Source of the DNA: a virus
Virus record (IMG/VR): IMGVR_UViG_3300026549_000035
Span: 1-32,917 of that record
Direction: 5' to 3' (one strand)
Length of the DNA: 32,917 nt
The translations under genes and the position numbers were made by a program. Shown piece by piece: positions 675 through 16,030 of the stretch. The first letter of the stretch is position 1, and each line of letters opens with the position of its first letter. Below the pieces are notes generated by a model that saw only the letters and a program-made list of their open reading frames with translations, was not told the DNA's origin and searched no databases.

Positions 675-684
675 AAAAATCGGT

Positions 685-1150: not shown

Positions 1151-1174
1151 TAGTTTTTTCGCCCGGGCGAATCG

Positions 1175-2527: not shown

Positions 2528-2589
2528 TTTAACCACGTCCTTTTCTTTAGTGTTTTAATTATAGCACATTCTGTGCCAGTTGTCAAGCG

Positions 2590-2763
2590 TTATCTGTCAA
2601 AAATTGCAATAATAATTGCACAAAGAATGACAATAGCCAGAGGAATCCAGAAGGGGGCAAGAACCCACCACCAAGACCAAGTAATTACGCCGACAAGCTT
2701 CAAGATGATAAAGACAATTCCAAGAACGTCACATACGCCTAAGCCTACAACTTTAGTGTCCAT
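2590..2763 (-). CDS. Small membrane protein (57 aa, two predicted TM segments; the sequence includes a WSWWW motif)
   Basis: Not in the ORF track because it is <60 aa. Promoter TTGACAttctacaacaagtatgcTATAAT and RBS GAAAGGAGAG precede the ATG. Confidence 0.5.
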   Translation of the reverse strand: MDTKVVGLGVCDVLGIVFIILKLVGVITWSWWWVLAPFWIPLAIVILCAIIIAIFDR

Positions 2764-2832
2764 CTTTTTCTCTCCTTTCTCTCTTGATTACAATGTTATT
2801 ATAGCATACTTGTTGTAGAATGTCAATAGTTA

Positions 2833-3036
2833 TTACAAAATTGTAACCGCGCCCGGGCGAAAAAAGGGCGGGGAACGCCCACTTGGAAAAGGCGTTCCCT
2901 CGTTAATAATAAGTGTGATTATTTTCGGTTGCGGGCGAGGAAGTTTAGGAGCTTCTTGCCTTTTCTCGAACTCCTCAACCTCAAGAATAAAAGAGTCAAA
3001 AAAATCCAGAAAATCAGAATAACTTGTGTAATACAT
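2833..3036 (-). CDS. Hypothetical protein (67 aa), translationally coupled to gene 3049..3417
   Basis: Strong RBS GGAGGtttagaATG. The C-terminal part of the ORF runs through a terminator-like hairpin, so its extent is uncertain. Confidence 0.4.
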   Translation of the reverse strand: MYYTSYSDFLDFFDSFILEVEEFEKRQEAPKLPRPQPKIITLIINEGTPFPSGRSPPFFRPGAVTIL

Positions 3037-3048
3037 TCTAAACCTCCA

Positions 3049-3417
3049 TTACTTTTTAGGCGGGCGATGTTTAATCAGCTTCACCGAATAGCTATCACCT
3101 TTGAAAGTGAAATGTAAATCAGTTTCATTTTTCAAGGGTTCTGTGATTGCGCCCATGCCTTCCAAAAGAACACGAATACAGTTAATAATTTCTTTCTTGA
3201 TTTTATCAACTTTTCGCTCTCTTTTTACAGGGGTGCGTTTTTTCGAGCCTACCTTAGAAGCAGATTTTATCGCTTTTTTCTGCTCTGCCGTTAAATCAGA
3301 CTGAGCTTCTTTTACCGACATTTTGTCGATTTCTTCATCTTCTTCAAGAAGTTGAATAGCTTCTTCTCTGGAACATTCAAGCGTTTTCATCAGCTTTTGG
3401 ATTCGTTCTTCATTCAT
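3049..3417 (-). CDS. Hypothetical protein (122 aa), paralog A2 of gene 723..1091
   Basis: Start MNEER after AGAGGTG. Promoter TTGACAttttaatcaaaacgtgtTATAAT at ~3445-3480. Confidence 0.7.
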   Translation of the reverse strand: MNEERIQKLMKTLECSREEAIQLLEEDEEIDKMSVKEAQSDLTAEQKKAIKSASKVGSKKRTPVKRERKVDKIKKEIINCIRVLLEGMGAITEPLKNETDLHFTFKGDSYSVKLIKHRPPKK

Positions 3418-3479
3418 TATTAGCACCTCTCTTTCAGTGTCTTTATTATAACACGTTTTGATTAAAATGTCAATACTTT

Positions 3480-3850
3480 TTTAACAAAAAAAAATCAAAA
3501 TGTGGAGCTTTCATTATGGGGGCGGATCTGTGGATGTTATGGTTACCCTCACCGCCCAATGCTATGTTTTTTGAGTTTTCCTCTCAAAACTCCTAGCTAA
3601 AAACATAGAAAAGACTGGAAAAAGCCACCCCGCTTTTTTTAGTTGTTTTTTAGGTAAAAACATAGAAATGGGAGGTTGAAAACTAAAAAACTGAGCACTT
3701 TCTTTAAATATTTTTTCTTCTTGAAAAATTTTTGCCGCACTCATAGCCGTATTCTAATAAGTCACCAACACATCCATTATTTATTACTCATAGGGTCTTG
3801 ATGTTGGGTATCCCTCGTATAGTCCTAAAGATGAGGTACCTATCTCCTTA
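3480..3850 (-). ncRNA. Candidate non-coding or leader transcript driven by a duplicated ~90-bp promoter cassette (TTGACT-17-TATACT) at ~3855-3935
   Basis: No ATG-initiated ORF with an RBS. The only ORF (3562..3744, 60 aa) is low-complexity with no SD. Internal direct repeats TAAAAACATAGAAA. Ends in a GGGCGG..CCGCCC hairpin plus a U9 tract. Confidence 0.35.
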
Positions 3851-4000
3851 GAACACTTATAGTATAACACATAAAAGGTAAAAAGTCAATAGTTTTTTGA
3901 AAATTTTTTTCGTTATTTTTTTTAACAGGCACCCGGGCGCAAAGCCTGCGGAAATCCGCAGGCTAAGCACAGAAAGGAGGACTCAAAAATGAGGAGTTAT

Positions 4001-4075
4001 TGGTGCGTATAGTGGGAGTCGAACCCACCTAAACACGATTAAAAGTCGTGTGCATAGCCGCTTTGCTACATACGC
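4001..4075 (-). tRNA. tRNA-Lys, anticodon UUU, with an encoded CCA
   Basis: Acceptor stem GCGTATG/TATACGC (six Watson-Crick pairs plus one G-U). D-loop contains GG. Anticodon stem CACGA/TCGTG with loop CTTTTAA. T-arm GTGGG-TTCGACT-CCCAC. Discriminator A then CCA. Co-transcribed downstream of gene 4127..4492. Confidence 0.85.
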
Positions 4076-4126
4076 ATGATAGGGGGTGGGGGGATTTCGC
4101 TCCCCCCACGGAGCGGACTGAGGGAA

Positions 4127-4492
4127 TTAACCCGCAATCTTGAAGTAAGTCCGACGCTTCTCGGAGTATTTCTCGACCTTGTTCGCTTCAACGAGCTGAC
4201 GCATGAGAGCGGAAACGTGCTGATTGCTGTCACCTTCAAGCTCTGTGACAGACTTGATAAGGTCAGTGACCGTGAAGCCCTCATTCTCGTTATCAGCGAG
4301 GAAATCAACAATGACCTCTTTCAGCTCTTCGTTCTTGACCTGCTGAGCGGTCAGCTTCTTGGGAGAAGCGTTCTTCTTCTCCAACTGCTCCACCATCTTC
4401 TGAAGCTTTGCGGTAACTTCGGAATTGCTGTCACCGATAGCGTCGATGGCAAAAAGCAGGGCGGTCTTGTTAGTCATCTTGGTATTACTCAT
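4127..4492 (-). CDS. Hypothetical winged-helix-like protein (121 aa), paralog B2 of gene 1197..1565
   Basis: High sequence identity to 1197..1565. Tandem promoters at ~4545-4580 and ~4715-4760. Confidence 0.7.
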   Translation of the reverse strand: MSNTKMTNKTALLFAIDAIGDSNSEVTAKLQKMVEQLEKKNASPKKLTAQQVKNEELKEVIVDFLADNENEGFTVTDLIKSVTELEGDSNQHVSALMRQLVEANKVEKYSEKRRTYFKIAG

Positions 4493-4834
4493 AGTATCAA
4501 ATCCTTTCTGGTTTATTGGGTTTTCCTTCCCTTACTGTAGTTTTATTATAACACACCTTGCGGTAAAAGTCAAGGGTTTTTTCAAAGTTTTTTGAAAAAA
4601 TTTCTTCAAGTGTTGCAACTGCAATTCGGCTGTGCCTGTCCATTCTCGTAACCCCGTTAGGGATTGGTCATCAAATCACATAGGTCTTGGCTTGCTTGCC
4701 CTTGCCCTTGACTGTAATATTATTATAGCACATTCTCAAAAAAATGCAATAGGCAAAATGCACAAATCGGTCTAAATTTTTAACACTTTTTTGTGCATTT
4801 TGCGGGTGGCGCCCGGGCGCCCAAGGGCAGGCTG

Positions 4835-5332
4835 TTAGCCCACCCATGAGTAAACCTTGACTTTGGGAGTAATAGTCTTTTTAACCTTTTGCCATGTACC
4901 ACCATGTTCACGCCAGTCATATTTCGGATTAGGAATTGTATAGTTATTCCCATCATCATCGTGAACAATCAGCTCACGAGGCGGTGCCTCAGGGTTATCT
5001 ACCCAGTCTTCAACTTCAATAGTGATAGGTTCTCCATCAATTATCTCAGTCTTGATAATACCTTTATCAGAGAGAATTTTCATAACTCTGCCAATAAAGC
5101 TCGACCAGCTCCGAGCTTCTTTAGTACGCCCATAGGAGGTGTAGTCAAGAGAGCTTGAAAACTTACGAATAGCGTGCTTAGAATACTCCTCTCCCATGAT
5201 AGCGATACCAATTTCTTTACAGGTCATAGGCTTTGTTGCAGAGCGCAGAATATCAAGGACGATTTCGGTATTTGAGATTGTTTTCTTAGACTTTCTTGCT
5301 CCTACAAAAATTTCTTCATAACTTAATGACAT
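4835..5332 (-). CDS. Hypothetical protein (165 aa)
   Basis: ORF with promoter TAGACA-17-TATAAT at ~5385-5430. Terminator-like GGGTGG..CCACCC hairpin enclosing GCGCCCGGGCGC at ~4800-4835. Confidence 0.65.
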   Translation of the reverse strand: MSLSYEEIFVGARKSKKTISNTEIVLDILRSATKPMTCKEIGIAIMGEEYSKHAIRKFSSSLDYTSYGRTKEARSWSSFIGRVMKILSDKGIIKTEIIDGEPITIEVEDWVDNPEAPPRELIVHDDDGNNYTIPNPKYDWREHGGTWQKVKKTITPKVKVYSWVG

Positions 5333-5511
5333 TTTAAAATCTCCTTTTATTTATTTGATGGGGCTTGGCTTCCCTTCCCTCATCTGACATACTTATTATA
5401 ACAGATAATTTTCATTTTGTCTATTGGCAAATTGTATAAATATGGGTCTAAATTTTTAATATTTTTATACAGATTGTTAAACATACTGACAAAGCCCGAA
5501 GGGGCTAAGCA

Positions 5512-5703
5512 TTATTTAGAACGCTTAGCCCTACAAGCTTTGCACATCAGCGGTGAAGTTGCAACCGCAACCAACACGCACATGATACAGCCCAAAATGC
5601 GGAAGAAATCAAACTCACCAAGAGTGAATCCAAAAACATACAGACCCGCAAAAAAGGCACAAAGATAAGAAATGACGAACTTTACAATGTTGAGAACTTT
5701 CAT
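5512..5703 (-). CDS. Small membrane protein (63 aa)
   Basis: Hydrophobic ORF. Promoter TTGTTG..TATAAT and RBS AAAGGGG at ~5705-5760. Hairpin terminator GGGCTAAGC..GCTTAGCCC at ~5480-5512. Confidence 0.55.
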   Translation of the reverse strand: MKVLNIVKFVISYLCAFFAGLYVFGFTLGEFDFFRILGCIMCVLVAVATSPLMCKACRAKRSK

Positions 5704-5869
5704 AATTCACAACCCCTTTCTTTGTTGTGTCTTTATTATAGCATACCTTTTGGAAAAAATCAACAACAGGGTTGTCATTTTTCGGTTACAGAATTTTAAC
5801 CAGCCCGGGCGCAAGAGGGCGTTTATGAAAATGAAATGAAAAATGAGAAAATACTTATAAAAATGAAAT

Positions 5870-6162
5870 AAAAAAGGAAATGGATAGGCTATTGCCTACC
5901 CAAATCCTATACGTATTATAAAACAGAAAAAAGAGGAGGAATCTCAAAATCTGCGTAGTATTGGAAAGGAGTTGCCGTCGTCCAGTCCACACTCACTTAC
6001 AACGGCTGTGAGTTGTCTTTGCCTCACTAATTTTTATACCGCAAGGTGGTCTTACCTGACAAGTATCCTGTCTTGTGCGCTAACCCCACGTCGCTTACAC
6101 TTTTGCCACTGCTGGAAGAAGGCTCAATGCTTGCGGTCGAAAGAAGTTCTATCTCTCTTTTA
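5870..6162 (-). ncRNA. Candidate ~290-nt non-coding RNA (unit 2)
   Basis: Promoter TTGACTttttcattaaagtatgtTATAAT at ~6168-6203. The transcribed minus strand contains no AUG. Ends in an 8-bp hairpin GGGUAGGC..GCCUAUCC followed by a U-rich tract at ~5870-5901. Confidence 0.4.
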
Positions 6163-6209
6163 GTGTCTTTATTATAACATACTTTAATGAAAAAGTCAAG
6201 AGATTTTTA

Positions 6210-6565
6210 AAAATTTTTTTCTATCGTGAATGGGGGCAAAAGAGCTGGACTTACATTATCTTCTCAAATGCCGTCGTAATGCCCCCATTGAACGAGAGTT
6301 CCCTCATTGTCGGTCACTCTAAACCCATGCAAGAAGTTCTTTTGCCACTCTAACGCAGGCAAAAAGCTACTCACGTTCAAAAAGCCCCGCGTTGCTACCG
6401 CACTTGTTATTGTTCTTCACTCTTGAAAACAATCCATCTTCCGAGGCAGCGTTGAACACTACTCTGAAAAGTCACCAAGCCCGTTTTTTTTACTACTCAT
6501 GGGAGACTACTGGAACTCCCCTTTGTAGTTCCAAGTTCGTGGCGCCCTCTCCCTTGGAACACTTA
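6210..6565 (-). ncRNA. Candidate ~350-nt structured non-coding RNA (unit 1)
   Basis: Driven by the second copy of the ~90-bp promoter cassette (TTGACT-17-TATACT) at ~6575-6640. Strong stems (GGGAGA..UCUCCC, AAUGGGGGCA..UGCCCCCAUU, CUUUUGCC..GGCAAAAG). Only 13-17 codon AUG ORFs without an RBS. Confidence 0.35.
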
Positions 6566-6663
6566 TAGTATAACACATAAAAGGTAAAAAGTCAATAGTT
6601 TTTTGAAAAATTTTTTTCGTTATTTTTTTAACAAATGCCCGGGCGCGCACTAAGAGTTTTCCC

Positions 6664-7014
6664 TTAGTGCGTAAAATGAATGAACTGTTGAGCAGGTTCC
6701 CATTTCAGGTCATCCCATAGGAAATCTAATAAATTGTATTTTTTAAAGAGCCTATCAAAAGCGAATCTGGTAGGAATATCTAAGAGTTTAGAGCTTGGTA
6801 TTACTGAATTAGAATCTTCATCAAGATAAAAAACAATTCCTAAGAAGTAGCCCTCATCTGTCCAAGTGCTAATAATCGGACAGTATTTTTCATCAAAAAA
6901 TTCTTCAAATTCTTCTTCTGTCATTCCTTGCTCAAGAAACTTATCTAAAAGTTTGTCCCTTGTTTCAGAATCAATAACGATACCATATCCAACAGCATAA
7001 CTATCTTCTATCAT
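6664..7014 (-). CDS. Hypothetical acidic protein (116 aa), second gene of a two-gene operon
   Basis: RBS GGAGGAAtataatcATG directly after the stop of 7017..7271. Its TAA stop lies inside the terminator hairpin GCACTAAG..CTTAGTGC, next to GCGCCCGGGC. Confidence 0.65.
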   Translation of the reverse strand: MIEDSYAVGYGIVIDSETRDKLLDKFLEQGMTEEEFEEFFDEKYCPIISTWTDEGYFLGIVFYLDEDSNSVIPSSKLLDIPTRFAFDRLFKKYNLLDFLWDDLKWEPAQQFIHFTH

Positions 7015-7016
7015 GA

Positions 7017-7271
7017 TTATATTCCTCCATTATACAATAAACATAAAAAATAAATATTTAATACTGCACTTGAAAGGTGCATTACTAATCCACTTACTCT
7101 GCGGTCAGTGGTTAAATCTCGGATTATTCCTACCACAGCGATACCTAAACCAAGCCAAGAAATAGAAAGACCGAAGCACATAATAAGTATTACATTGATT
7201 ACCATAGCAACACAGCGCAGGTCATTCCATTCAAAGATGTAAGGCTCAGTAATATTGAAAAATCTCTTCAT
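7017..7271 (-). CDS. Small membrane protein (84 aa)
   Basis: Start MKRFF after AGAGGAG. Promoter TTGACAaataatttaaaacatgaTATAAT (extended -10 TGaTATAAT) at ~7285-7320. Confidence 0.6.
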   Translation of the reverse strand: MKRFFNITEPYIFEWNDLRCVAMVINVILIMCFGLSISWLGLGIAVVGIIRDLTTDRRVSGLVMHLSSAVLNIYFLCLLYNGGI

Positions 7272-7320
7272 CTTTATCAGCTCCTCTCTTTTTTCTATAT
7301 ATATTATATCATGTTTTAAA

Positions 7321-7446
7321 TTATTTGTCAAGCATTTCTTTATCCCAATCATCAAGAGCTTCCTTGCTCTGGTCGAGCCACGCGCCGAGGCTCGCGTCGC
7401 TCTCCACTTTCGAACTATATAAAAGCCATATAGGGGCTGTTGACAT
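7321..7446 (-). CDS. Small acidic protein (41 aa; MSTAPIWLLYSSKVESDASLGAWLDQSKEALDDWDKEMLDK)
   Basis: Missed by the ORF track because it is <60 aa. Strong RBS GGAAAGGAGAGG. Promoter TTGACAaagtggcacggggtgtgcTATAAT at ~7525-7560. Its last codons (L D K, then stop) are encoded by the -35 TTGACAAATAA of the next promoter. Confidence 0.45.
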   Translation of the reverse strand: MSTAPIWLLYSSKVESDASLGAWLDQSKEALDDWDKEMLDK

Positions 7447-7559
7447 GATTTCCTCTCCTTTCCACTTTCACACTTTACTGCGGTAAAGCCCCTCTCTCCC
7501 CTCGCAGGGGCGGGCTTCCGACACCTTTATTATAGCACACCCCGTGCCACTTTGTCAAG

Positions 7560-7790
7560 TTACAATTTTGTAACCTTTTCGTGCTTTAACGTATTAAAGC
7601 GTAGCGGTTTAACGTTTTAGTGTGCTAAAGTACTTTCGGGATTTACCATGTTAGCACTTTAACGTGTTAAAGCGTAACGATTTATTGCTTTAACGCTTTA
7701 GTGCGTGAAAACGGGTCGCGGCACCCAATCGCGACCCGCCGAATGCATAATTATTCATGGGTATGCTTGCATAAATATGCAAAAAAGGAT
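7560..7790. promoter_or_regulatory. Repeat-rich intergenic regulatory region: TTGTAAC direct repeats, multiple GCTTTAAC/GTTAAAGC palindromes, TTGCATAAATATGCAA, and the GC hairpin GGGTCGCG..CGCGACCC
   Basis: Iteron-like repeats read directly from the sequence. Architecture mirrors 9895-10095. Confidence 0.5.
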
Positions 7791-7848
7791 TGAGGTTAAT
7801 TCTCAACCCTTTATAAGTTTGTGTAGCGGTTTGGATTTTGAGGAAAAG

Positions 7849-8250
7849 CTATTTTAACTTTTCCTCAAGCCATGCTAACATTTTTTTACTTTCATCACGC
7901 AAGCGGATTTTTTCAGCTCCGCCATTTTTTTCGCTCTCTCTGGTAACGTAACCAAAAGCATTTACAAAAGCGATATACTCAGCTTTTTCCATAACGTAGG
8001 CTGTGCCGTTTCTGGTAGCGTAAATGTAAAGGTCAGAAGCGTCAAGGTCAAGGTATCTTTCAAGGTCTGTGCCTTTGCAGATAGAAGCCTTTGCGCTTTT
8101 CACTTGGAAGTTAAGAACATCAGCCCCTTTGTCAAATCTCAGGTTATCAGCCTTTAGGATTTCACCTGTTAAATGAAATCTGATTGACTGCTCTGCGTTT
8201 TGTCCGTGATTGCGGTAGTTGTTAAGATAAGTGAAAGTAAATGCTCTCAT
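7849..8250 (-). CDS. Hypothetical protein (133 aa)
   Basis: Start MRAF after AAAGGA. Promoter TTGACAagCCCGGGCtgatgtgcTATAAT at ~8255-8310. Imperfect hairpin terminator at ~7775-7812. Confidence 0.65.
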   Translation of the reverse strand: MRAFTFTYLNNYRNHGQNAEQSIRFHLTGEILKADNLRFDKGADVLNFQVKSAKASICKGTDLERYLDLDASDLYIYATRNGTAYVMEKAEYIAFVNAFGYVTRESEKNGGAEKIRLRDESKKMLAWLEEKLK

Positions 8251-8319
8251 TTTTCGATCGTCCTTTCGTCTTTCGTTAATACTATTATAGCACATCAGCC
8301 CGGGCTTGTCAAGCCTTTT

Positions 8320-8481
8320 TCAAGAAAAAATATAATTTTTCTTGAAACTGTAAAAGGCTTGTTCAAACTGTAAAAGCTCCGACAGAGTGAAACGGCTTGC
8401 GAAATGCTCAGGCGTTTCATCAAACAGGTAATAGCCATTTTTTACCATTCTTTCCACGACATAAATTTTTGATTCTTTCAT
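8320..8481 (-). CDS. Small protein (53 aa; MKESKIYVVERMVKNGYYLFDETPEHF...)
   Basis: Below 60 aa, so absent from the ORF track. RBS GAGAGGAGAA. Extended -10 promoter (acaTGaTATAAT) paralogous to the promoter at 7285-7320. Confidence 0.45.
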   Translation of the reverse strand: MKESKIYVVERMVKNGYYLFDETPEHFASRFTLSELLQFEQAFYSFKKNYIFS

Positions 8482-8545
8482 TTTAGTTTTCTCCTCTCTC
8501 TTTACTATCTATATTATATCATGTTACGTGTCCTATAAACGGGAC

Positions 8546-8950
8546 TTAGAGAGCTACCGCTTCACCTTTTTCAGCTAAAGTGATTGCTTCATATCCAGCC
8601 TTTGTCCATTGGCGGGTATTCTTGGGGTCATCATCAACCAGAACGCCAACCTCACGGATAAAATCAACTTTGCGACCATAACCAACTATGCAGATAAAAT
8701 TTGCAAGTGCAAATTCGGGAATGTGCTTTGCAAGCCAATCAATTTTTCCCGCCTTGCCTGCTTCGTTGCGGGCTTTGGTCAGAATGTAAACCTTGACGCC
8801 TTCAGCGATAAGTCTGCGGACTGTTGAAACGTTCTCAGTGAATGGTTCAAGATTTGCCATAGCTTCACGGCTTGCGGCAGTGTTTTTGTCAGTAGCATAC
8901 GCTTTGTGGAAGTTGGCGAGAACGCCGTCCATGTCAAAGTAGTAAGTCAT
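8546..8950 (-). CDS. HAD-superfamily 5'(3')-deoxyribonucleotidase-like protein (134 aa)
   Basis: N-terminal motif YFDMDGVLANF (DxDGV, typical of NT5C-type nucleotidases). Start MTYYF after GGAGG. Promoter TTGACAtCCCGGGCtgtttggtgTATAAT. Confidence 0.8.
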   Translation of the reverse strand: MTYYFDMDGVLANFHKAYATDKNTAASREAMANLEPFTENVSTVRRLIAEGVKVYILTKARNEAGKAGKIDWLAKHIPEFALANFICIVGYGRKVDFIREVGVLVDDDPKNTRQWTKAGYEAITLAEKGEAVAL

Positions 8951-9093
8951 TTTTCGATCCTCCGTGTCTTTCATTGTCTTAATTATACACCAAACAGCCC
9001 GGGATGTCAAGCGTTTTTTGAAAAAAAATATTTTTTGTTAAAATGCACAAATTGGGAATATAGAATTTGTGCAACATTTAGCGCATTTTTCTC

Positions 9094-9122
9094 TTGACTT
9101 TTGGTGGGAGGTGTAGTATAAT
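9094..9122 (+). promoter_or_regulatory. Plus-strand sigma-A type promoter TTGACT-17-TATAAT driving a ~65-nt transcript antisense to the 3' end of gene 9181..9363
   Basis: TTGACTtttggtgggaggtgtagTATAAT. The transcript has hairpin GGGGCG..CGCCCC and terminates in the 10-bp stem ATAAGCGGAT..ATCCGCTTAT (9160-9184), shared with the convergent gene. Confidence 0.55.
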
Positions 9123-9180
9123 ATTTCGGGGCGCCACGCCCCTGATCGGTGACAAAAAAATAAGCGGATTTGCGATCCGC

Positions 9181-9363
9181 TTATCTGTGCCAGATTTTGA
9201 GGCTTGAAGCATACCGACCGAGGGGATACGTGCGAACCTCTTGTAGTTCAACATAAGAAACTTTGCCGACTTTTGAATTGAAGTAAGCAAGCGCCTCATC
9301 ATAGTTACGGAAAGCCTCATCTTCTCTAAAATTCCAAGTCACTACATAAAACATTTCTTTCAT
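9181..9363 (-). CDS. Small protein (60 aa), member of a 56-65 aa paralog family (with 12185..12355 and 13783..13980)
   Basis: Promoter TTGACAagCCCGGGCttttgatgTATAAT and RBS AAAGGAAAGAGG. Shares the YFN..V..ELK..IW pattern with 12185..12355. Confidence 0.6.
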   Translation of the reverse strand: MKEMFYVVTWNFREDEAFRNYDEALAYFNSKVGKVSYVELQEVRTYPLGRYASSLKIWHR

Positions 9364-9454
9364 TTTTCTTACCTCTTTCCTTTATCTTATGTATACATTA
9401 TACATCAAAAGCCCGGGCTTGTCAAGCCCTTTTATTGGACTTTGTAAAATTTTT

Positions 9455-9622
9455 TTATTTGCTCCAATCAGGGTTGAAAACCACAAAACCGTTGACATTT
9501 TTTGCGACTTCTTCTGCTTTGTCTGCGTTATCAAACGCACCCCAAAACCAGTCAGCACCGTCGCACTCTCTCGCTACGATGTAGGGAAAATCATCGGCGT
9601 AATCAGGCACATTCTTAATCAT
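9455..9622 (-). CDS. Small acidic protein (55 aa; MIKNVPDYADDFPYIVARECDGADWFWGAFDNADKAEEVAKNVNGFVVFNPDWSK)
   Basis: Missed by the ORF track. RBS AAGAGAGGAG. Promoter TTGACAaactcgatctcttggggTATACT, preceded by GGTTACAA..GTTACAA direct repeats. The overlapping plus-strand ORF 9389..9655 is an artefact. Confidence 0.5.
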   Translation of the reverse strand: MIKNVPDYADDFPYIVARECDGADWFWGAFDNADKAEEVAKNVNGFVVFNPDWSK

Positions 9623-9727
9623 TTTTCAAGCTCCTCTCTTAACTTTCTATACTAAGTATACCCCAAGAGATCGAGTTTGTCAAGCATTTTTTGAGATTGT
9701 AACTAATTTGTAACCTTTTGGATAATA

Positions 9728-9856
9728 AAAAAAATGAGGGCTTGCGCCCTCGGTGCTGACTTGCTCTCAGCTGGAACAGAGCTTTGTTTTAAGTGCGCCC
9801 ACCACTCGTAGTGTCGGCTGGTTTTTAGGTGTGCTCTGTTTCTCCCTTCACCCTAC
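9728..9856 (-). ncRNA. Candidate small RNA (~125 nt): consensus promoter, no AUG anywhere in the transcript, classic intrinsic terminator
   Basis: Promoter TTGACTtttataacataatcgtgTATAAT (-10 at 9863-9868). Terminator GAGGGCgcaaGCCCUC plus U8 at 9727-9752. Internal stem CAGAGC..GCUCUG. Confidence 0.5.
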
Positions 9857-9894
9857 AAGTAGATTATACACGATTATGTTATAAAAGTCAAGCA

Positions 9895-10095
9895 TTTTTT
9901 GAAATTGTAACTATTTTGTAACCTTTGCATACCCATGCATAATTATGCATACTTTCGGGATTTAATACTTTAGTGTGTTAAAGTGCATAATTATGCACTT
10001 TATTGTTGTAGCACTTTAACGCGCTAAAATCGGCGCGGGTCGATCGTAGGCGCGCCGCCGAAACAAAGTCCAATAAAATGGACTGAATAATTATG
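9895..10095. promoter_or_regulatory. Palindrome-rich regulatory region: ATGCATAATTATGCAT (perfect 16-bp), GTTAAAGTGCATAATTATGCACTTTA, GCACTTTAACG, TTGTAAC repeats, GC hairpin GGCGCG..GCGCGCC
   Basis: Read directly from the sequence. Shares TACTTTCGGGATTTA and the motif families with 7560-7790. Confidence 0.45.
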
Positions 10096-10117
10096 CAAAA
10101 AAAAATGCGGTCACCGC

Positions 10118-10375
10118 TCAGGGGAAAATCTGAGCGGTGATGTCAACGACAATCCAGCGAGAGCCGTCCTCAGAGAGGGAGCGTTCCCAGACCAAACCGC
10201 AAGGGAGAAAAATGCGGTTTCTGCGTTCCCAGCCTCGAACTGCCATGTCAATGAACAGCTCGAACATCTGGCTCTGAGTGAGACCTTCGAAAAGGCTTCT
10301 GACGAACCACATCTGACCATCGTCAGGAACAAGGCTCAGCAGAGTGCGGTAGTGGTTAAAATCTTTCTTAGTCAT
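10118..10375 (-). CDS. Hypothetical protein (85 aa)
   Basis: RBS AAAGGAGGAA. Promoter TTGACT-17-TATAAT at ~10400-10440. C-terminal codons and the TGA stop are encoded inside the terminator stem CACCGCTCAG..CTGAGCGGTG followed by a U9 tract. Confidence 0.6.
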   Translation of the reverse strand: MTKKDFNHYRTLLSLVPDDGQMWFVRSLFEGLTQSQMFELFIDMAVRGWERRNRIFLPCGLVWERSLSEDGSRWIVVDITAQIFP

Positions 10376-10528
10376 GTTAGTTCCTCCTTTGGGGGGGTAG
10401 CCCCTCTTTCATTGTCTTTATTATAGCACACTCGGGCAAAAAAGTCAATAGTTTTTTCAAAGAAAGTATTCGTCAAAATATACAAATCGGGAATCTTTTT
10501 TGACTGTGAAGTTTGTGCATTTTGCGAA

Positions 10529-10557
10529 TTGATTTTTGCGGCGGGCTGTGGTATAAT
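10529..10557 (+). promoter_or_regulatory. Plus-strand promoter TTGATT-17-TATAAT driving a short transcript antisense to the 3' end of gene 10603..10911
   Basis: The transcript begins AATTTCCGGC and ends at hairpin GGATTAGC..GCTAATCC (10600-10620). The same architecture recurs at 9094 and 12477. Confidence 0.5.
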
Positions 10558-10602
10558 AATTTCCGGCTCTGGCGCCCGGGCACGGTGACGAAAAGAAAAG
10601 GA

Positions 10603-10911
10603 TTAGCAATACGCTAATCCCATTGTTTTCCAATTCAAAATTGAAATTTGATTGCATTTTCTTCCAATTGTCAGAGCCTCTCTTTTAGTATTAACTCTGT
10701 GACTTTTATCAACATAGTAAATACCATTTGAAAACCATACGCCGCAGTTTCCATTATACGCTTTTACTGCGTTTATTGCTTCTCTTGGGCTTGTCGTTTC
10801 AACGCCTTCCGTTGCAACCTGCCAGCCTGTTTTGTAGGTTGTGGCTTTTCCCTTTTTTAAGGTTAAGCCCTCATTTTCTTTAAGTTTCAGAATTGAACGA
10901 ATGTTAATCAT
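10603..10911 (-). CDS. Hypothetical protein (102 aa)
   Basis: Start MINIRS after AGAGAGGAG. Promoter TTGACTtttcgCTCGGGCtgtgcTATAAT at ~10935-10980. Confidence 0.6.
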   Translation of the reverse strand: MINIRSILKLKENEGLTLKKGKATTYKTGWQVATEGVETTSPREAINAVKAYNGNCGVWFSNGIYYVDKSHRVNTKREALTIGRKCNQISILNWKTMGLAYC

Positions 10912-11002
10912 TTTCTTATCTCCTCTCTTTATTGTGTCTTTATTATAGCACAGCCCGAGCGAAAAGTCAAGTGTTTTTTCAAAAAAAATAAAGGGCGTAT
11001 TT

Positions 11003-11272
11003 TTACGCCCATTGTAATTTTCCATCGACTACATAGATAACACTCTCTGCGCCATCGTATTCATCGACATAGTGGTCGGTGCAATTTTCGGGAAGCTCAA
11101 CAACTTTTAACTCAGCGTGAGTTCCATTTACATCTTCCCCTGCTTCTATTGCTGAGATTAACTCAGCATTATAGCGGAGTTCTTCACTATCATGAGAATC
11201 AATTCCAAGGCGGTCTGCCCATTCCTTAGATACGCTAAATCCACCATAGCAAGCATTGACAATTAATTTCAT
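11003..11272 (-). CDS. Hypothetical acidic protein (89 aa)
   Basis: RBS AAGAGAGGAG. Promoter TTGACTtttggatgcgtctatgcTATAAT at ~11285-11335. Stop overlaps terminator GGGCGTA..TACGCCC plus a T-tract. Confidence 0.65.
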   Translation of the reverse strand: MKLIVNACYGGFSVSKEWADRLGIDSHDSEELRYNAELISAIEAGEDVNGTHAELKVVELPENCTDHYVDEYDGAESVIYVVDGKLQWA

Positions 11273-11397
11273 TTTTTTTTATCTCCTCTCTTTATTGTAT
11301 CTTTATTATAGCATAGACGCATCCAAAAGTCAATAGTTAAATTGCACAAAGATGTGATAAGAATTCTGTGCAGATTGACGAATCCGCCCGGGCGCAA

Positions 11398-11544
11398 TTA
11401 ATAAGGCAGATACGCCTTTTTGTGTTTGCGTTCTGCCTTTCTCAGCTTACCTTTTTTTGTATCTTCTACTTTTGGAGCGAAGCCCACAAAAGTCGGTCCT
11501 CTGTGTTTTCTTTTTTCCTCGGTTTTCTTTGTCCTGTGGCTCAT
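11398..11544 (-). CDS. Small highly basic protein (48 aa; MSHRTKKTEEKRKHRGPTFVGFAPKVEDTKKGKLRKAERKHKKAYLPY), likely nucleic-acid binding
   Basis: Start after GGGGAG. Promoter TTGACAtttgaggggttttgtgcTATAAT. The 79-aa ORF-track version starts upstream of the promoter and is rejected. Confidence 0.5.
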   Translation of the reverse strand: MSHRTKKTEEKRKHRGPTFVGFAPKVEDTKKGKLRKAERKHKKAYLPY

Positions 11545-11587
11545 TTTTATCTCCCCTTTCATTGTCTTTATTATAGCACAAAACCCC

Positions 11588-11881
11588 TCAAATGTCAAGA
11601 GGTTTTTCAGAAAAAAGTTCTTTTTCTTCAATTTCATAGTCTAAGCCATCAAGATGGAAGAAAAAAGCCTTCTTTTTTAATAAAATTTTAAGCCATTCTT
11701 TACCATATAAGTTTTTTAAACTCAACCATTTAGAATAAATTGAATAATAGCTTGTATAATTTTCACTTAATCCCTTGTTATCAATAAGCCATTGGATTGC
11801 GCTTGCATGGCTGTCACAAACCGCTACAACCTCAGTAGTATCATCAAAACCGTAAGTTTCTGTAATTGTAAATACTGTCAT
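11588..11881 (-). CDS. Hypothetical protein (97 aa), co-transcribed after gene 11912..12097
   Basis: RBS AAAAGGAG. Last codons L-D-I then stop are encoded by the next promoter's -35 (cTTGACAtttga). Confidence 0.6.
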   Translation of the reverse strand: MTVFTITETYGFDDTTEVVAVCDSHASAIQWLIDNKGLSENYTSYYSIYSKWLSLKNLYGKEWLKILLKKKAFFFHLDGLDYEIEEKELFSEKPLDI

Positions 11882-11911
11882 TTTTATCGCTCCTTTTGGA
11901 TAGCTGAGGGG

Positions 11912-12097
11912 TTAACTCTCAGCCCACCAGTCAGCAGTTTTCATCTTTGCGATTTCGCCCTCTAAGCGGTCAAGGCTCAGATTGTTGTCGGGATAGCTTT
12001 CGCATTTTCTTGCGAAGTCAATAGTTTCGGGAGCTTCATGTCCGAACATTCTGATTACTTCGGTCAACATTTCTTCTCTTGTTCTTCTTTCTGTCAT
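11912..12097 (-). CDS. Hypothetical protein (61 aa)
   Basis: Promoter TTGACAagcaagggtttttgtgtTATAAT and RBS AAGGAAAGGAAG. Stop inside hairpin GGCTGAGAGTTAACCCCTCAGC. Confidence 0.6.
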   Translation of the reverse strand: MTERRTREEMLTEVIRMFGHEAPETIDFARKCESYPDNNLSLDRLEGEIAKMKTADWWAES

Positions 12098-12184
12098 TTT
12101 GATAACTTCCTTTCCTTTTTTCTGTCTTTATTATAACACAAAAACCCTTGCTTGTCAAGTGTTTTTTAAACAAAATCTGGCGTT

Positions 12185-12355
12185 TTATTTACGCCAGATT
12201 TCAATGCTCTGTGAGTAGTAGCGGTGACCATTGTCATCAACTGCTTTCAGTTCGCAGTAGGTGAAATTTCTCTTTACTCTGTTAAAGTAAGCTCTCGCTT
12301 TTTCCTCAGTGTTAAATTCCTCATAGGTTTTATAAGCAGATACTACAAATGTCAT
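12185..12355 (-). CDS. Small protein (56 aa), paralog of gene 9181..9363
   Basis: Start MTFVV after AAGGAAAGAGAGG. Promoter TTGACTttaaagacttttcatgcTATAAT. The ORF-track N-terminal extension is rejected. Confidence 0.55.
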   Translation of the reverse strand: MTFVVSAYKTYEEFNTEEKARAYFNRVKRNFTYCELKAVDDNGHRYYSQSIEIWRK

Positions 12356-12476
12356 TTTGTTTTCCTCTCTTTCCTTTTTTCTGTCTTTATTATAGCATGA
12401 AAAGTCTTTAAAGTCAATAGGCAAAGTGCACAAATCGGGAGCGCCCGAGCGCATGAAAGTTTGTGCATTTTGCCTA

Positions 12477-12505
12477 TTGATTTTGTGTGGGGATTGTGCT
12501 ATAAT
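12477..12505 (+). promoter_or_regulatory. Plus-strand promoter TTGATT-17-TATAAT, divergent from the promoter of gene 12185..12355. The inverted repeat TGCACAAA..TTTGTGCA (12427-12467) lies between the two -35 elements
   Basis: Transcript ATTTCCGGCUACGCC... ends at hairpin GGGCTGA..TCAGCCC (12542-12559), which is also the terminator of the convergent gene 12553..12903. Confidence 0.5.
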
Positions 12506-12552
12506 ATTTCCGGCTACGCCGATCGTCCTCGAAAATTAAAAGGGCTGATTGC

Positions 12553-12903
12553 TCAGCCCCAAAGTGAATTAACTGCTATTGAAAGAGACCCTTCTCGAAC
12601 ACCAGTTTCACTGTAACCATAGTATTTGCTATAATCTGTTTGATTTTTTTCTCCTCTTGCTTTAATCTCTGCTTGGATTCTACGCCAACCAATTTCAAAG
12701 CAATAATCTATAAACCATTCAGAATATCTATATTTTTCTCTTCTTGCTTTACTATAGGTCATAACAGCAATTTGATCATTAGGGTATTCTCTTTTTAACT
12801 GTTGCTTTAATGCTTGTAATTCCTCAATGTTAGTGGAGTGTTGGATAATTTTACAACCATCGTGAGAAGGTTTTTCGTTTACTTTAATTACTGCATACTC
12901 CAT
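12553..12903 (-). CDS. Hypothetical protein (116 aa)
   Basis: Promoter TTGACAagCCCGGGCtaatatgcTATAAT. RBS AAAGAGAGAGG. Confidence 0.65.
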   Translation of the reverse strand: MEYAVIKVNEKPSHDGCKIIQHSTNIEELQALKQQLKREYPNDQIAVMTYSKARREKYRYSEWFIDYCFEIGWRRIQAEIKARGEKNQTDYSKYYGYSETGVREGSLSIAVNSLWG

Positions 12904-13009
12904 GATTATTTTCCTCTCTCTTTACTGTGTTTTTATTATAGCATATTAGCCCGGGCTTGTCAAGCGTTTTTTGAAAAAAAATAAAAAAAATAAGACTGAT
13001 TGCTCAGTC

Positions 13010-13324
13010 TTATAAATCTTCATCCATAGCATCTTCATAACACTTTGAACAATAGATTTTATTATTAATTAAATCTTCAAGGCTATCACCGAGTCTTAGT
13101 TCCAAATCTAAGGCGGAAACTGTCTCGCCGCAATCAGGACAAATAAAGATTTTTTGCTCTCTCAGGAAAGTATCTATTCTTTTACCTTCGGCGCTAAGTC
13201 TTGATTTTTCTCTCTGGCGAATTTCTCCACGATATTTATAAACCTTAACATACTTTTCGTGATACTTTGTGTAATAATTATTGGCATAGTCTAGTGCGAG
13301 TTCAGCAATTTCTTTTCTTGTCAT
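13010..13324 (-). CDS. Hypothetical zinc-ribbon protein (104 aa; CPDCGETV...CSKCYED)
   Basis: Start MTRKEIAEL after AAGGAAAGAGAGG. Promoter TTGACAttttgCTCGGGCtatgcTATAAT. Terminator AAGACTGA..TCAGTCTT with a T-run at ~12975-13010. Confidence 0.6.
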   Translation of the reverse strand: MTRKEIAELALDYANNYYTKYHEKYVKVYKYRGEIRQREKSRLSAEGKRIDTFLREQKIFICPDCGETVSALDLELRLGDSLEDLINNKIYCSKCYEDAMDEDL

Positions 13325-13440
13325 TTTTATTTTCCTCTCTTTCCTTTTTTCTGTATTTATTATAGCATAGCCCGAGCAAAATGTCAAGTGTTTTTTGAAA
13401 ATTTTTTTTGTTAATTTTTTAACAATCCATTTCCATAAAT

Positions 13441-13465
13441 AAAAACCGCCGTAGCGGTTTTTATT
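13441..13465 (-). terminator. Intrinsic terminator AAAACCGC-CGTA-GCGGTTTT. A second copy lies at 13764-13786
   Basis: Stem ACCGC/GCGGT with a CGTA loop flanked by A and T runs. Shares the CCGTAGCGG core with repeats in 14150-15310. Confidence 0.6.
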
Positions 13466-13489
13466 TAATTAATCACAGTACATCCAAGT

Positions 13490-13642
13490 TTCAAGTTCTT
13501 TCAAAGATACACCAAGATACTTTGACGCTGACTTCCAGCTTTCATCCAGTTTATCAAAAAAGATATCGTTCTGTTCATCTGTTAAACTATTGATTTTGGC
13601 TTCTACCTTATTGTATGTTTTTGTTAATTTTTTGACTGTCAT
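13490..13642 (-). CDS. Small protein (about 50 aa; MTVKKLTKTYNKVEAKINSLTDEQNDIFFDKLDESWKSASKYLGVSLKRT)
   Basis: RBS AAGAGAGGAG. Promoter TTGACAttttaCTCGGGCtatgtTATAAT. A +1 frame would extend it to 13468 across an A4/T5 run, so the 3' end is uncertain. Confidence 0.4.
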
Positions 13643-13782
13643 TTTTATTATCTCCTCTCTTTATCTTGATTACATTATAACATAGCCCGAGTAAAATGTC
13701 AAGTGTTTTTTTGAAAAAAATAAAAATTTTTTTTGTTAAATTTTTAACAATTTTTCCCAAAATTAAAACCGCCGTAGCGGTT

Positions 13783-13980
13783 TTAATCCATGTGTTCTTG
13801 GCGAACTACAAAGAACTTGTCGACCTTAGTCCAGTCAACCTTGTCACCGTTCCAGAGTCTTGCGGGTTTGGTAGCGTTCAGAGTGTTTACCTCAGCCTCG
13901 GCTCTTTCCACGGTCTTGTAGGTTTCGTATGCGAGATAGCTCTCACCAGTCTTGGTAGTGTAACAGATAGCAGTTGTCAT
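13783..13980 (-). CDS. Small protein (65 aa)
   Basis: Promoter TTGACAtttcctgtaattcatgtTATAAT. RBS AAGGAAAGGAAG. Followed by the CCGTAGCGG terminator. Confidence 0.55.
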   Translation of the reverse strand: MTTAICYTTKTGESYLAYETYKTVERAEAEVNTLNATKPARLWNGDKVDWTKVDKFFVVRQEHMD

Positions 13981-14204
13981 TTTAATACTTCCTTTCCTTT
14001 TTTCTGTCTAAATTATAACATGAATTACAGGAAATGTCAATAGTCAAATTGCACAAAGATAATCGCTAAAAAAAGGTTGGTTTTGTGCATAGTGCCCAAT
14101 TAGGGCTGTGCCGACCGTTGACGTAGATTGTTAATTATTTAACAATCTATCCCCAACCTGTGTCTAACTGATAGATGTTGACACCGTAGCGGTTTACATC
14201 ATTG

Positions 14205-14365
14205 TGTGTATAACACTGTTGTTCTGTGTGTGATACTCTCTCTTTGTCTTTGTGTGTGTTGTGCTTCTCTCTCTCTCTCTTTGCTTCTCTTTGTGTGTAT
14301 GCTTCTCTCTCTCTCTCTCTTTGCTTCTCTCTTACTCTCTTTGAGTGTGTCACACACACAAACGC
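14205..14365. repeat. Low-complexity CT/GT-rich tract with ~38-bp tandem units (GCTTCTCTCTCTCTCTCTTTGCTTCTCTTTGTGTGTAT-like)
   Basis: Read directly from the sequence. Lies 3' of gene 14374..14703. The overlapping ORFs in both strands here are low-complexity artefacts. Confidence 0.7.
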
Positions 14366-14373
14366 CTTGCCCC

Positions 14374-14703
14374 TTAGTCAGCAAAAGGGTCAAGGCGCAC
14401 ACTCAAGATTTCATCATCATAGATGGTTGAAGTTCCCTGATTATCCATGAGTACAATAACAGAGTTATCTTTTTGAAAATTTTCTGTTCCAAAGAACTCC
14501 CAAATCTCTCCATGAGAATCTTCTATTTGAACAGTGTCCGAGGCTGTATCTACATCTACTACTTTAGCCTGCATGGTGTAATTAGTATCATTAGTCGTGG
14601 GTGAACTTGCGCGATAAATAAGACATACTACAAAAATGGTAACTATTACCAAATGTGTTACTACGCAGATGTTAATGATTGCATAGAATGTTTTGTTTTC
14701 CAT
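14374..14703 (-). CDS. Membrane-anchored protein (109 aa; N-terminal TM helix, beta-rich C-terminal domain)
   Basis: Promoter TTGACAagaagccaagagtatgcTATAAT, preceded by the TGCACAAA..TTTGTGCA inverted repeat. RBS AAAGAGAGAGAGG. Confidence 0.65.
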   Translation of the reverse strand: MENKTFYAIINICVVTHLVIVTIFVVCLIYRASSPTTNDTNYTMQAKVVDVDTASDTVQIEDSHGEIWEFFGTENFQKDNSVIVLMDNQGTSTIYDDEILSVRLDPFAD

Positions 14704-14995
14704 GGGTGATTGTCCTCTCTCTCTTTATTGTATCTTTATTATAGCATACTCTTGGCTTCTTGTCAATAGTCAAATTGCACAAAGATAGTATTAGTCTTTT
14801 GTGCATTTTGCCAATAGCACAAACGTTCGAACGCTCCCCCAATCTTGGCACTACGCTGATGGGAGCGTGTGCCGTAGCGGTTACTGGGGCTGTAGGTTGG
14901 TTAGCCAATGCTAACTTAATAGGGAGATTACCCTAATTAGTAAAATAGGGGTTAGGTATTGCTAACTCAATTCAAACAAAAGTTCGAACAAACGT

Positions 14996-15036
14996 CCAGC
15001 CTGTGCGTTGGCTGATAGGAGCCAGCACCGTAGCGG
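14996..15036. repeat. 41-bp direct repeat, copy 2 (CCAGCCTGTGCGTTGGCTGATAGGAGCCAGCACCGTAGCGG). Copy 3 is at 15267-15307 and a diverged copy 1 at 14154-14193
   Basis: 37 bp are identical between copies 2 and 3. All copies end in the CACCGTAGCGG motif. Confidence 0.8.
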
Positions 15037-15625
15037 CATAGCAAGATGCACAAAGAGCCGCAATAGATTTTGTATAGTTTTACCAATCGTTAGAGATTCA
15101 GCAAGAGGGTCGTGCTTCATGGGGGTTTACACAAAAAATTATCGAAGAGCTTATTACACGCAAACTACGGTCGTTGCGCCCAGTAACGACCGTAGCAAAA
15201 CTAACTATCTCGTTTTAGGCGTGGCTAATCTTCACAGAGTTAGCCTTAGCTAATTGGTCTCATACTCCAACCTGTGCGTTGGCTGATAGGAGCCAGCACC
15301 GTAGCGGTTCATTCATTGGGGGTATTTAACTTACCCCAGGGTGTTTGACAGGGGTGAGATGCGACAGTAGGCCCTAGCATTTTTTCTCAATCAGCAATAC
15401 TTTTTATATATTTTTAATGAGATAAAAATGGAAAGAGGGGGGCACTATTTCGGGAAAAAATTTTTTTTAAAGAGAAAAAATTTTTTTGTCTGACCAAAAC
15501 TATCTTGAAACTAATTTTCATTTTCAATTACGATATCAGGAAAAATATTCTTCCCTCTTCTTTTTTTACCTTTTTCAAAAAAAATATGCCGGCCGCAATT
15601 ATCGCCACCGACATTCGAATTATCA

Positions 15626-15913
15626 TTAAACATTACGCACAAATACATGCCAAACTAATCCATCATCCATTTGAACTGTTCCTATATAATCTCCAATATA
15701 ACCATATTTACATCCCGTTCCCAAAACAGTAATTTCCACGGTTATTTTTTCATTTTCTTTCCGATGTTTTCCACTGTACTTTTCTATATGATTTTCAGCC
15801 CACATTACTAAATTATTGTTTTGTTTTCCAACTGTAAAAATTCCAGTAAACCAACCTTTAATTCTTACACATCCGCCTTCTGGAAGAATATATTTGTACA
15901 TTACTTTTTTCAT
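15626..15913 (-). CDS. Hypothetical protein (95 aa) in the AT-rich block
   Basis: Start MKKVMYK after AAAGGATGA. Promoter TTGATT-17-TATAAT at ~15930-15960, back-to-back with the plus-strand promoter at 15973-16001. Confidence 0.55.
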   Translation of the reverse strand: MKKVMYKYILPEGGCVRIKGWFTGIFTVGKQNNNLVMWAENHIEKYSGKHRKENEKITVEITVLGTGCKYGYIGDYIGTVQMDDGLVWHVFVRNV

Positions 15914-15972
15914 AAAAAAATCATCCTTTTTTTTTATTTTTATTATATAATATTTTTTTAAATTAATCAAAT

Positions 15973-16001: not shown

Positions 16002-16030
16002 TCTATTAGAGACTGGAGGTAAGATAATAA

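Follow-up and report, generated by a model that had tools for sequence, protein, structure and literature searches.

Two homologous non-coding arrays in the early region

The DNA analysed here is a 32,917-nucleotide stretch of a virus (IMG/VR record IMGVR_UViG_3300026549_000035, positions 1 to 32,917; hereafter the window), and its subject is a pair of non-coding repeat arrays, array A (7529-7815) and array B (9863-10140). Both lie in the early half of the window (bases 1-16,000), which consists of small minus-strand genes, nearly each with its own TTGACA-17-TATAAT promoter and intrinsic terminator. The arrays, ~280 nt each, are collinear homologues on the minus strand: their alignment runs from end to end with a mean column identity of 73%, and each lies, in the same orientation, between an intrinsic terminator and a promoter that matches the consensus at 11-12 of 12 positions. 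Read in the direction of the genes, the module begins with the terminator of the upstream gene, which is followed by one or more copies of a palindrome termed P1, a GC-rich hairpin with TTTT, a field of a second palindrome, P2, with tandem half-sites, the block TAAATCCCGAAAGT, GTTACAA repeats (P3), an A-rich upstream element and the consensus promoter. The sequence TACTTTCGGGATTTA occurs in exactly two perfect copies, at 7631 and 9950. The arrays are duplicated, oriented modules that are real, conserved and cis-acting.

A preliminary description of the same DNA had reported two homologous arrays of repeats and palindromes, at 7560-7790 and 9895-10095, on either side of a small-RNA gene. All the elements it listed were recovered where it had placed them, including five P1 copies, the TACTTTCGGGATTTA pair and hairpins at 7712-7738 and 10031-10057, and the homology was borne out over the whole alignment. 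The true units are larger than it had drawn them, running on the minus strand from terminator to promoter. The TTGTAAC repeats, which it took to be direct, are so only at 9697 and 9905, whereas in array A they form the inverted repeat GGTTACAAAATTGTAAC. A small-RNA cassette does lie directly downstream of array B, but the 2.05 kb between the arrays also hold five small protein genes (55, 60, 134, 53 and 133 aa) and an antisense promoter at 9094.

Three classes of palindromic sites and a base-paired hairpin

P1 is the AT-rich 14-bp palindrome TGCATAATTATGCA. When up to two mismatches were allowed, five copies were found in the window (7744, 7768, 9936, 9984 and 10084), all within the arrays and all with at most one mismatch. 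The chance expectation for the 33-kb window was 0.30, and none of 100 shuffles reached five copies. P2 is the 20-bp palindrome CRCTTTA-N6-TAAAGYG, for which the strict pattern gave seven matches (four sites) in the window where 0.33 were expected; 6 of the 12 window copies of CTTTAAC/GTTAAAG fall within ~430 nt, and the P2 centres of array A are 31 and 42 bp apart. P3 is made of GTTACAA repeats, inverted or direct, near the -35 box, which it abuts at 7559-7575 and from which it is 5-15 nt away at 2830, 9697 and 9905. The P3 palindrome GGTTACAA(A/T)TTGTAAC was also found at, or at most 5 nt from, the -35 box of promoters without the rest of the module, both in the window (2830) and on two contigs of relatives, which are given here by L numbers (L003:10586 and L066:15004). 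This provides independent support for reading these sites as operators.

Palindromes may act as double-stranded DNA or as RNA stems, and the variation among sites bears on this choice. Across 70 distinct P2 sites, positions 2 and 19 carried A-T in 32, G-C in 10 and a hybrid in 28, where independence predicts ~30, 8 and 31. This lack of covariation showed that the P2 half-sites evolve independently. All P2 arms carry one common sequence, and the asymmetric P2 centre occurs in both orientations relative to genes and transcription. Symmetry extends to the centres of P1 (AATT) and of many P2 sites (ACGCGT), which fits binding by a dimer better than hairpin loops. Taken together, these features suggest that P1, P2 and P3 are putative double-stranded protein-binding sites rather than RNA stems. 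Compensatory stem changes were seen in the GC hairpin alone: its stem differs in each of 15 sequences from as many lineages, and the fold is always retained. This pattern marks it as genuinely base-paired; the simplest identity would be a second terminator or a hairpin at a 5' end. In a shuffled-sequence folding test both strands were more stable than the shuffles (z = -2.9 and -3.6, the opposite strand being the better); since palindromes fold whatever their function, this test was uninformative on DNA versus RNA. The G-T and A-C mismatches in the list of P2 sites showed no consistent strand bias, so that no strand could be assigned.

Other identities were considered for these sites. Manual reading of the P1 region found no hidden sigma-A promoter and no fitting sigma-D or sigma-F/G-like spacing. 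Compared with host operator consensuses (Fur/PerR 7-1-7, ARG box, LexA and CcpA), P1 showed only a loose likeness to the ARG box, TGAATAATTATTCA. CRISPR-like or RNA anti-CRISPR repeats were ruled out, as the spacing is irregular and too short.

The modules are conserved in close and distant relatives

Near-identical contigs differ in the arrays by whole units: 14 additional nt correspond to one P1, 47 to a block of P2-type half-sites and 46, in array B of L008, to one P1-P2-core unit. These lengths are not multiples of three, and no conserved open reading frame (ORF) was found within the arrays among the relatives compared; neither array is therefore coding, as the preliminary description had held. 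In three syntenic relatives (L066, L067 and L051) both arrays occupy the same two positions, and P1 is found nowhere else. From GC hairpin to promoter the arrays are 91-94% identical to those of the three relatives, whereas at third positions of conserved codons in the gene for the 133-aa protein gp133 the identity is only 71-78%. Nearby synonymous sites thus change several-fold (3-5x) faster than the arrays, which appear to be under purifying selection.

Homologues of gp133 are present on many metagenomic contigs, and the lineages found through this protein (L001, L003 and L002, the last being the same contig as L014) encode versions only 32-39% identical to that of the window. A scan of three collections with the 20-base core pattern TAAAGTGCTAACNNNNTAAATCCC brought in about twelve more lineages, sampled from gut and rumen. 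The order of elements in the distant lineages is unchanged, namely terminator, GC hairpin, several P2, core, more P2, P3 and promoter, and the core pattern is exact even at this level of gp133 divergence. Where P1 stands in the window, distant lineages carry other AT-rich palindromes, ATGAATATTCAT in L057, GTTAGTTAATTAACTAAC in L001, L014 and L062, and GTTAATTAAATAAC in L013; four P1 types were distinguished (TGCATAATTATGCA, TGAATATTCA, GTTAGTTAATTAACTAAC and GTTAATTAAATAAC). P1 is lineage-specific in sequence; P2 is shared by the whole phage group. Several related genomes have at least two copies of the module, 1.7-6 kb apart, and some have a solitary P2 after other early genes. The complete genome of phAss-1, a 136-kb human-gut phage (PMC10607447) that is filed under the 'code 15 clade', contains three strict P2 sites only, all in its early small-gene region. 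The preliminary description had named a lack of conservation in related phages as grounds for giving up its reading; the repeats are kept in close and distant relatives alike.

Searches of other collections returned little. By megablast and blastn the arrays were unmatched among deposited phages, the sole match, a 53-nt ribosome-binding-site/promoter stretch shared with S. thermophilus phages, being spurious. Nothing similar to the arrays was found in the plasmid collection. An IMG/VR scan with the 15/16-nt pattern TTAAATCCCGAAAGTR gave 33 single matches on contigs that look unrelated; these are probably due to chance.

A small-RNA cassette bounded by promoter-proximal repeats

The array B promoter drives a small-RNA cassette that has a good terminator at its end, scored z = -2.55 and matched no Rfam family. 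The cassette was found only in the window and its twin, L007. It is absent from L008, L066, L067 and L051, in which array B is joined directly to the promoter of the 55-aa gene. Its boundaries are formed by a 40-nt repeat, 95% identical (family D4), that comprises P3, the upstream element and the -35 box. The bounding repeat, together with the absence of the cassette from relatives, indicates that the cassette was gained or lost by recombination between promoter-proximal repeats. Judged from these junctions, the module seems to double as a recombination joint for small gene and RNA cassettes.

Between array B and the 85-aa gene, relatives carry a different insert, promoter-driven, terminator-ended, non-coding and ~200-410 nt long (L008:1025-1375, L066:7936-8345, L067:8090-8310 and L051:700-930); the window is without it. 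A 115-nt internal segment of this insert is shared with the distant L065, L060, L070 and L049. The insert, which has no Rfam match, is a candidate new structured RNA.

Two homologous promoters on the plus strand, at 9094-9190 and 10529-10625, are aimed against the early genes and are kept in L066, L067, L051 and L008. The short transcripts, each with a GC hairpin and then CGGTGAC(A/G)AAAA, continue into the converging gene's terminator and are likely antisense small RNAs. Just upstream of the 9094 promoter stand TGCACAAAT repeats in inverted orientation (9044-9073). The only above-threshold Rfam match in the window was a tRNA-Lys; the relatives gave none, and an E-value search of 7300-10700 returned sub-threshold matches only.

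A proposed multi-operator module for early promoters

The preferred reading, in which we have moderate confidence, is that the arrays serve some of the early promoters as multi-operator regulatory regions. Each array would be a cis-regulatory module of the early region, insulated by one or two terminators, ending in a strong sigma-A-type promoter and bearing at least three classes of dyad-symmetric putative protein sites, P1, P2 and P3. Phage-encoded or host DNA-binding proteins would occupy these sites and, once bound, would time or shut off the attached early promoter. Arrays A and B, which are 2.3 kb apart, may also cooperate across the intervening genes, including those for a 5'-nucleotidase and the PD-(D/E)xK nuclease-like gp133, and the recurring promoter-proximal sequence would let the modules serve as joints for the gain and loss of small gene or RNA cassettes. 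Two features expected of operators were found, in that dyad sites of 12-20 bp are repeated (P1 of 14 bp five times, P2 of 20 bp, and P3 in inverted or direct form) and the P2 arms do not covary. Of the three roles offered by the preliminary description, an origin of replication, a partition site or a multi-operator region, the last is best supported, by the dyad sites, the independent half-sites, P3 at the -35 box and purifying selection; a partition site is unsupported and an origin is without its hallmarks.

Candidate binders are encoded in the early region. One is an AbrB/MazE-type DNA-binding protein (368-619), which matches PF04014 with E = 4e-6; winged-helix paralogues at 1197-1565 and 4127-4492 are two more, besides further small early proteins. 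In L014 and L001 a solitary P2 comes right after the homologous winged-helix gene, and in L003 it comes after the p124 gene that follows that gene. A tblastn search of phAss-1 with six early proteins (the AbrB-like protein, one winged-helix paralogue, gp133 and three others) found none of them, and no protein is thus linked to P2 by co-occurrence.

Several observations count against a regulatory role of this kind. The proteins that would bind P1, P2 and P3 stand as candidates only. P1 and P2 are located 40-260 bp ahead of the promoter and not over it, so that simple steric repression is not implied, and of the more than 20 early promoters in the window just 2 have the full module. In four distant lineages the module is transcribed from a promoter placed 3-5 nt before the GC hairpin, and a role at the RNA level is possible. 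Finally, recent recombination rather than selection could partly lie behind the high conservation among close relatives.

Alternative readings

The modules could instead be replication origins, several per genome, in which P2 and P1 would be bound by an initiator and the strong promoter beside them would activate or prime initiation. We regard this as unlikely. Several origins per genome are found in T4, T7 and SPP1, and the arrays resemble iteron-type or multi-repeat phage origins (lambda ori, SPP1 oriL/oriR and lactococcal phage ori) in being non-coding clusters with more than one repeat class, which are sometimes duplicated and sometimes beside a promoter. The adjoining strong promoter, the multiple copies in related genomes and the deep conservation of the non-coding modules all agree with such a role, as does the GC hairpin, whose structure is kept despite sequence change and could form in single-stranded DNA. 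However, the repeats are palindromic and irregularly spaced, not tandem direct iterons in helical phase. No AT-rich unwinding element was found (AT content is 59.8% and 61.9% in the arrays against 61.7% in the early region, and the top 30-bp window reaches 0.73-0.77), and no initiator, helicase, primase or other replication protein is encoded among the ~49 ORFs of the 16-kb early region. In phAss-1, replication genes are tens of kb from the P2 sites. Cumulative GC skew, which had been proposed as a check for an origin, showed no inflection at the arrays; it falls steadily through them and turns only at its minimum at ~16 kb, where the direction of genes and transcription flips.

A wider proposal, to which we likewise give little weight, is that the modules are hubs at which a so far undescribed phage nucleoprotein complex assembles. 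P2 and the core would load a clade-wide factor, P1 and P3 would lock or direct it, and the early region would be controlled over long range; alternatively, the modules would be the first defined origins of the clade, possibly processed by gp133. Such a hub would formally resemble KorB-KorA silencing on RK2, here in a TAG-recoding gut phage.

The module might also act as RNA, either a non-coding RNA or a leader rich in hairpins, that a phage factor binds or processes; we consider this quite improbable. In L012, L014, L064 and L065 a consensus promoter fires straight into the GC hairpin and the module, and the hairpin is followed there by AATTT instead of a T-run. Besides the compensatory changes of the hairpin in 15 lineages, L056 has a G-T pair that would become G-U only if the sense strand is the one transcribed. 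The fold predicted for the module exceeds shuffled sequence in stability (z = -2.9), and P2-like hairpins occur downstream of the array A promoter too, with one compensatory change between L066 and L067. In the lineage of the window, by contrast, one or two terminators precede the module, which has no recognisable promoter of its own. The opposite strand folds better (z = -3.6), as palindromes of any function do, and the P2 stems are without covariation and occur in both orientations. One sequence is shared by all stems, the symmetric centres would fall in hairpin loops, and no Rfam match was obtained in gathering-threshold or E-value searches.

That the arrays have no dedicated function, being terminator-promoter junk left by slippage and recombination and comparable to T4-type PeSL (promoter/stem-loop) cassettes, is in our judgement very improbable. 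Whole-unit copy-number changes among near-identical genomes, the gain or loss of the small-RNA cassette between promoter-proximal repeats and the mosaic of promoter-gene-terminator cassettes that makes up the whole early region are all in keeping with it. The slow change of the arrays relative to neighbouring synonymous sites argues against it, as do the exact core pattern beside a neighbouring protein of only 32-39% identity and the syntenic positions of both arrays in L051, L066 and L067.

Least probable of all is that the arrays are targets of gp133, another DNA signal (for a site-specific nick or cut, a genome end or an injection pause) or a partition site. The gp133 protein has a restriction-endonuclease-like fold with an intact D...QxK motif, and the gene adjoins the module, on the downstream side in L001, L014, L003, L052, L054 and L060 and on the upstream side, next to array A, in the window; this synteny may mean only that the module was ancestrally the gp133 promoter region. 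The GC palindrome GCCCGGGC marks early intergenic regions (11 copies against 0.12 expected), and P2 is arranged like known dispersed operators or centromere-like sites, for instance KorB OB, TTTTAGCGGCTAAAA (PMC11790492), and the NadR box, TGTTTA-N6-TAAACA (PMC2330245), but it is off OB by one central base pair and off the NadR box by two bases per half-site. Nothing ties the arrays to genome ends, Pfam and PHROG searches found no ParA, ParB, ParM or ParR in the window, and there is no similarity to plasmids.

Relation to known systems

For the multi-operator module, the closest functional parallels, by analogy, may be the dispersed operator systems of mobile elements, namely RK2 KorB/KorA, whose operators are OB and OA, TGTTTAGCTAAACA (PMC11790492), and SPbeta MrpR with its repeated element SPBRE (PMC10516654). 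As in the arrays, short palindromes are found there repeatedly, at a number of promoters or between genes within a single mobile genome, and a distal class of sites is combined with a promoter-proximal one. The half-sites of P2 (TTTA-N6-TAAA) resemble RK2 OB/OA, and the structural genes of this phage group are SPbeta-like, with matches to YonB, YonD and YonG. The window is, however, without a ParB/KorB or MrpR-like protein, and the sites of those systems are single, whereas here they form composite stacks of 200-280 bp with a GC hairpin and a conserved core. The spacing of P2 differs from that of OB by 1 bp, and P2 shares the geometry but not all the bases of the NadR box. These differences and the lack of a matching protein make KorB/KorA and NadR analogies of design, not of membership.

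Cassette exchange has its closest parallel, again by analogy, in PeSL, the promoter/stem-loop cassettes through which genes are shuffled in T4-type phages (PMC2839356, PMC4122927). In both cases a terminator stem-loop and an early promoter form a composite between small early genes, and whole cassettes bounded by a repeated motif differ between close relatives, here the small-RNA cassette. PeSL elements are ~50-70 nt long and have no extra operator field, whereas here 150-200 nt of conserved palindromes lie between terminator and promoter, and just two full modules are present per genome.

Genomic context and further features

The features of both arrays and their surroundings are collected in Table 1.

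Table 1. Coordinates of array elements and associated features in the window
Feature	Position	Strand	Remarks
Isolated P3 palindrome	2830..2848		5 nt upstream of another early promoter
Transcript of array A promoter	7310..7522	-	A P2-like palindrome recurs at 7471-7490; the 41-aa ORF at 7321-7446 is doubtful
Array A promoter, TTGACA-18-TATAAT	7529..7558	-	Consensus
P3 palindrome GGTTACAAAATTGTAAC, array A	7559..7575		Abuts -35 box; like arrangement in L003, at window 2830-2848 and at L066:15004
P2 field, array A	7582..7703		20-bp palindromes 7655-7674, 7613-7632, 7582-7601; tandem half-sites 7686-7703
Conserved core TAAAGTGCTAACATGGTAAATCCCGAAAGT	7632..7661	-	Core pattern TAAAGTGCTAAC-N4-TAAATCCC recurs exactly in distant lineages
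GC hairpin A (CGGGTCGCG/CGCGACCCG), then TTTT	7708..7738	-	Hairpin at 7712-7738; stem sequence differs in 15 lineages, hairpin always kept
P1 palindrome TGAATAATTATGCA, array A	7744..7757		L008-L011 have one more 14-bp copy between the 7744 and 7768 copies
P1 palindrome TGCATATTTATGCA, array A	7768..7781		From P1 search
Terminator of 133-aa gene (hairpin + T6)	7781..7809	-	Upstream boundary of array A, in minus-strand reading; kept in relatives
gp133 gene, 133 aa, small PD-(D/E)xK-like protein	7849..8250	-	Syntenic with the module in many lineages
Second P3, UP element and promoter (of 55-aa gene)	9655..9715	-	Direct repeat bounding the small-RNA cassette; family D4, 95% identity
Small-RNA cassette	9728..9856	-	~130 nt, without ORF; ends in GGGCGCAAGCCC hairpin + T8
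Array B promoter, TTGACT-17-TATAAT	9863..9891	-	Drives the small-RNA cassette
P3 direct repeat GGTTACAAAATAGTTACAA, array B	9905..9923	-	From sequence reading
P1 palindrome TGCATAATTATGCA, array B	9936..9949		From P1 search
P2/P1 field, array B	9950..10031		P2 10012-10030, P1 9984-9997, P2 9966-9985, TAAATCCCGAAAGT 9950-9964; L008 has an extra 46-bp unit
GC hairpin B (CGGCGCG/CGCGCCG), then TTTT	10026..10057	-	Hairpin at 10031-10057
P1 palindrome TGAATAATTATGCA, array B	10084..10097		Deleted in L066
Terminator of 85-aa gene	10098..10140	-	Upstream boundary of array B, in minus-strand reading

Doubt attaches to the 41-aa ORF downstream of array A, since L010 has CTG in place of its ATG and the homologous sequence of L066, L067 and L051 is without an ORF. 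A near-perfect 30-bp palindrome, TTTCAAGAAAAAATATAATTTTTCTTGAAA, at 8318-8347, directly precedes the -35 box at the gp133 promoter, and a similar A/T palindrome at 9016-9043 is placed upstream of the nucleotidase promoter. Both may be further operators or bent upstream elements. All copies of the 8-bp palindrome GCCCGGGC are in the early region (156, 1161, 2851, 4811, 5803, 6637, 8298, 9411, 10574, 11386 and 12949). Those that were examined are intergenic, in promoter spacers (8298, 9411 and 12949) or between terminator and promoter (1161 and 2851). This palindrome may be another protein site, or may be related to the GC hairpin of the modules.

The late half of the window (bases 16,000-32,917) carries structural genes on the plus strand, and its ORFs are closed only with TAG readthrough; the ORF at 23245-24984, for example, has 579 codons including 11 internal TAG. 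TAG is the stop codon of early genes such as gp133. The use of TAG as a sense codon in late genes fits the 'code 15' label of phAss-1, and the major protein of the capsid region is 50% identical to its phAss-1 counterpart. The source of the window is a gut phage, a relative of phAss-1, whose late genes use TAG for an amino acid. No suppressor tRNA was found within the window, the sole tRNA being tRNA-Lys(UUU) at 4001-4075. The one genome paper found on the phAss-like phages (PMC10607447) does not contain the words 'repeat', 'promoter' or 'early'; 'origin' is present twice. GC content is 38% in bases 1-16000 and 31% in 16001-32917.

Among the early genes is the 5'-nucleotidase gene adjacent to the arrays (8546-8950), and NAD-salvage genes were found in the early clusters of L068 and L070. 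The early region also contains a segmental duplication of a gene pair on the minus strand (723-1565 and 3049-4492), in which a winged-helix-like gene (122/121 aa) is followed by that of a 124/125-aa protein. In the second copy the tRNA-Lys and a long non-coding stretch are inserted between the two genes. The 122-aa winged-helix-like gene has up to four copies in relatives (L066). In L069, ~500 nt of simple-sequence repeats (CT-rich runs, GACAA and GATAGG units, and CA/CG runs) occupy an intergenic position at the point where early and late genes diverge (8230-8760).

Significance for phAss-like phages

Phages of the phAss-like group, which decode TAG as an amino acid in late genes, are uncultured and have almost no annotated regulation, and the module gives their early region a conserved, selectable non-coding landmark. 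The arrays document the exchange of small RNA and gene cassettes at repeated promoter-proximal sequences. Defined oligonucleotides, together with a short list of candidate binders, would offer an entry point to the timing of early transcription before the recoded late genes are expressed.

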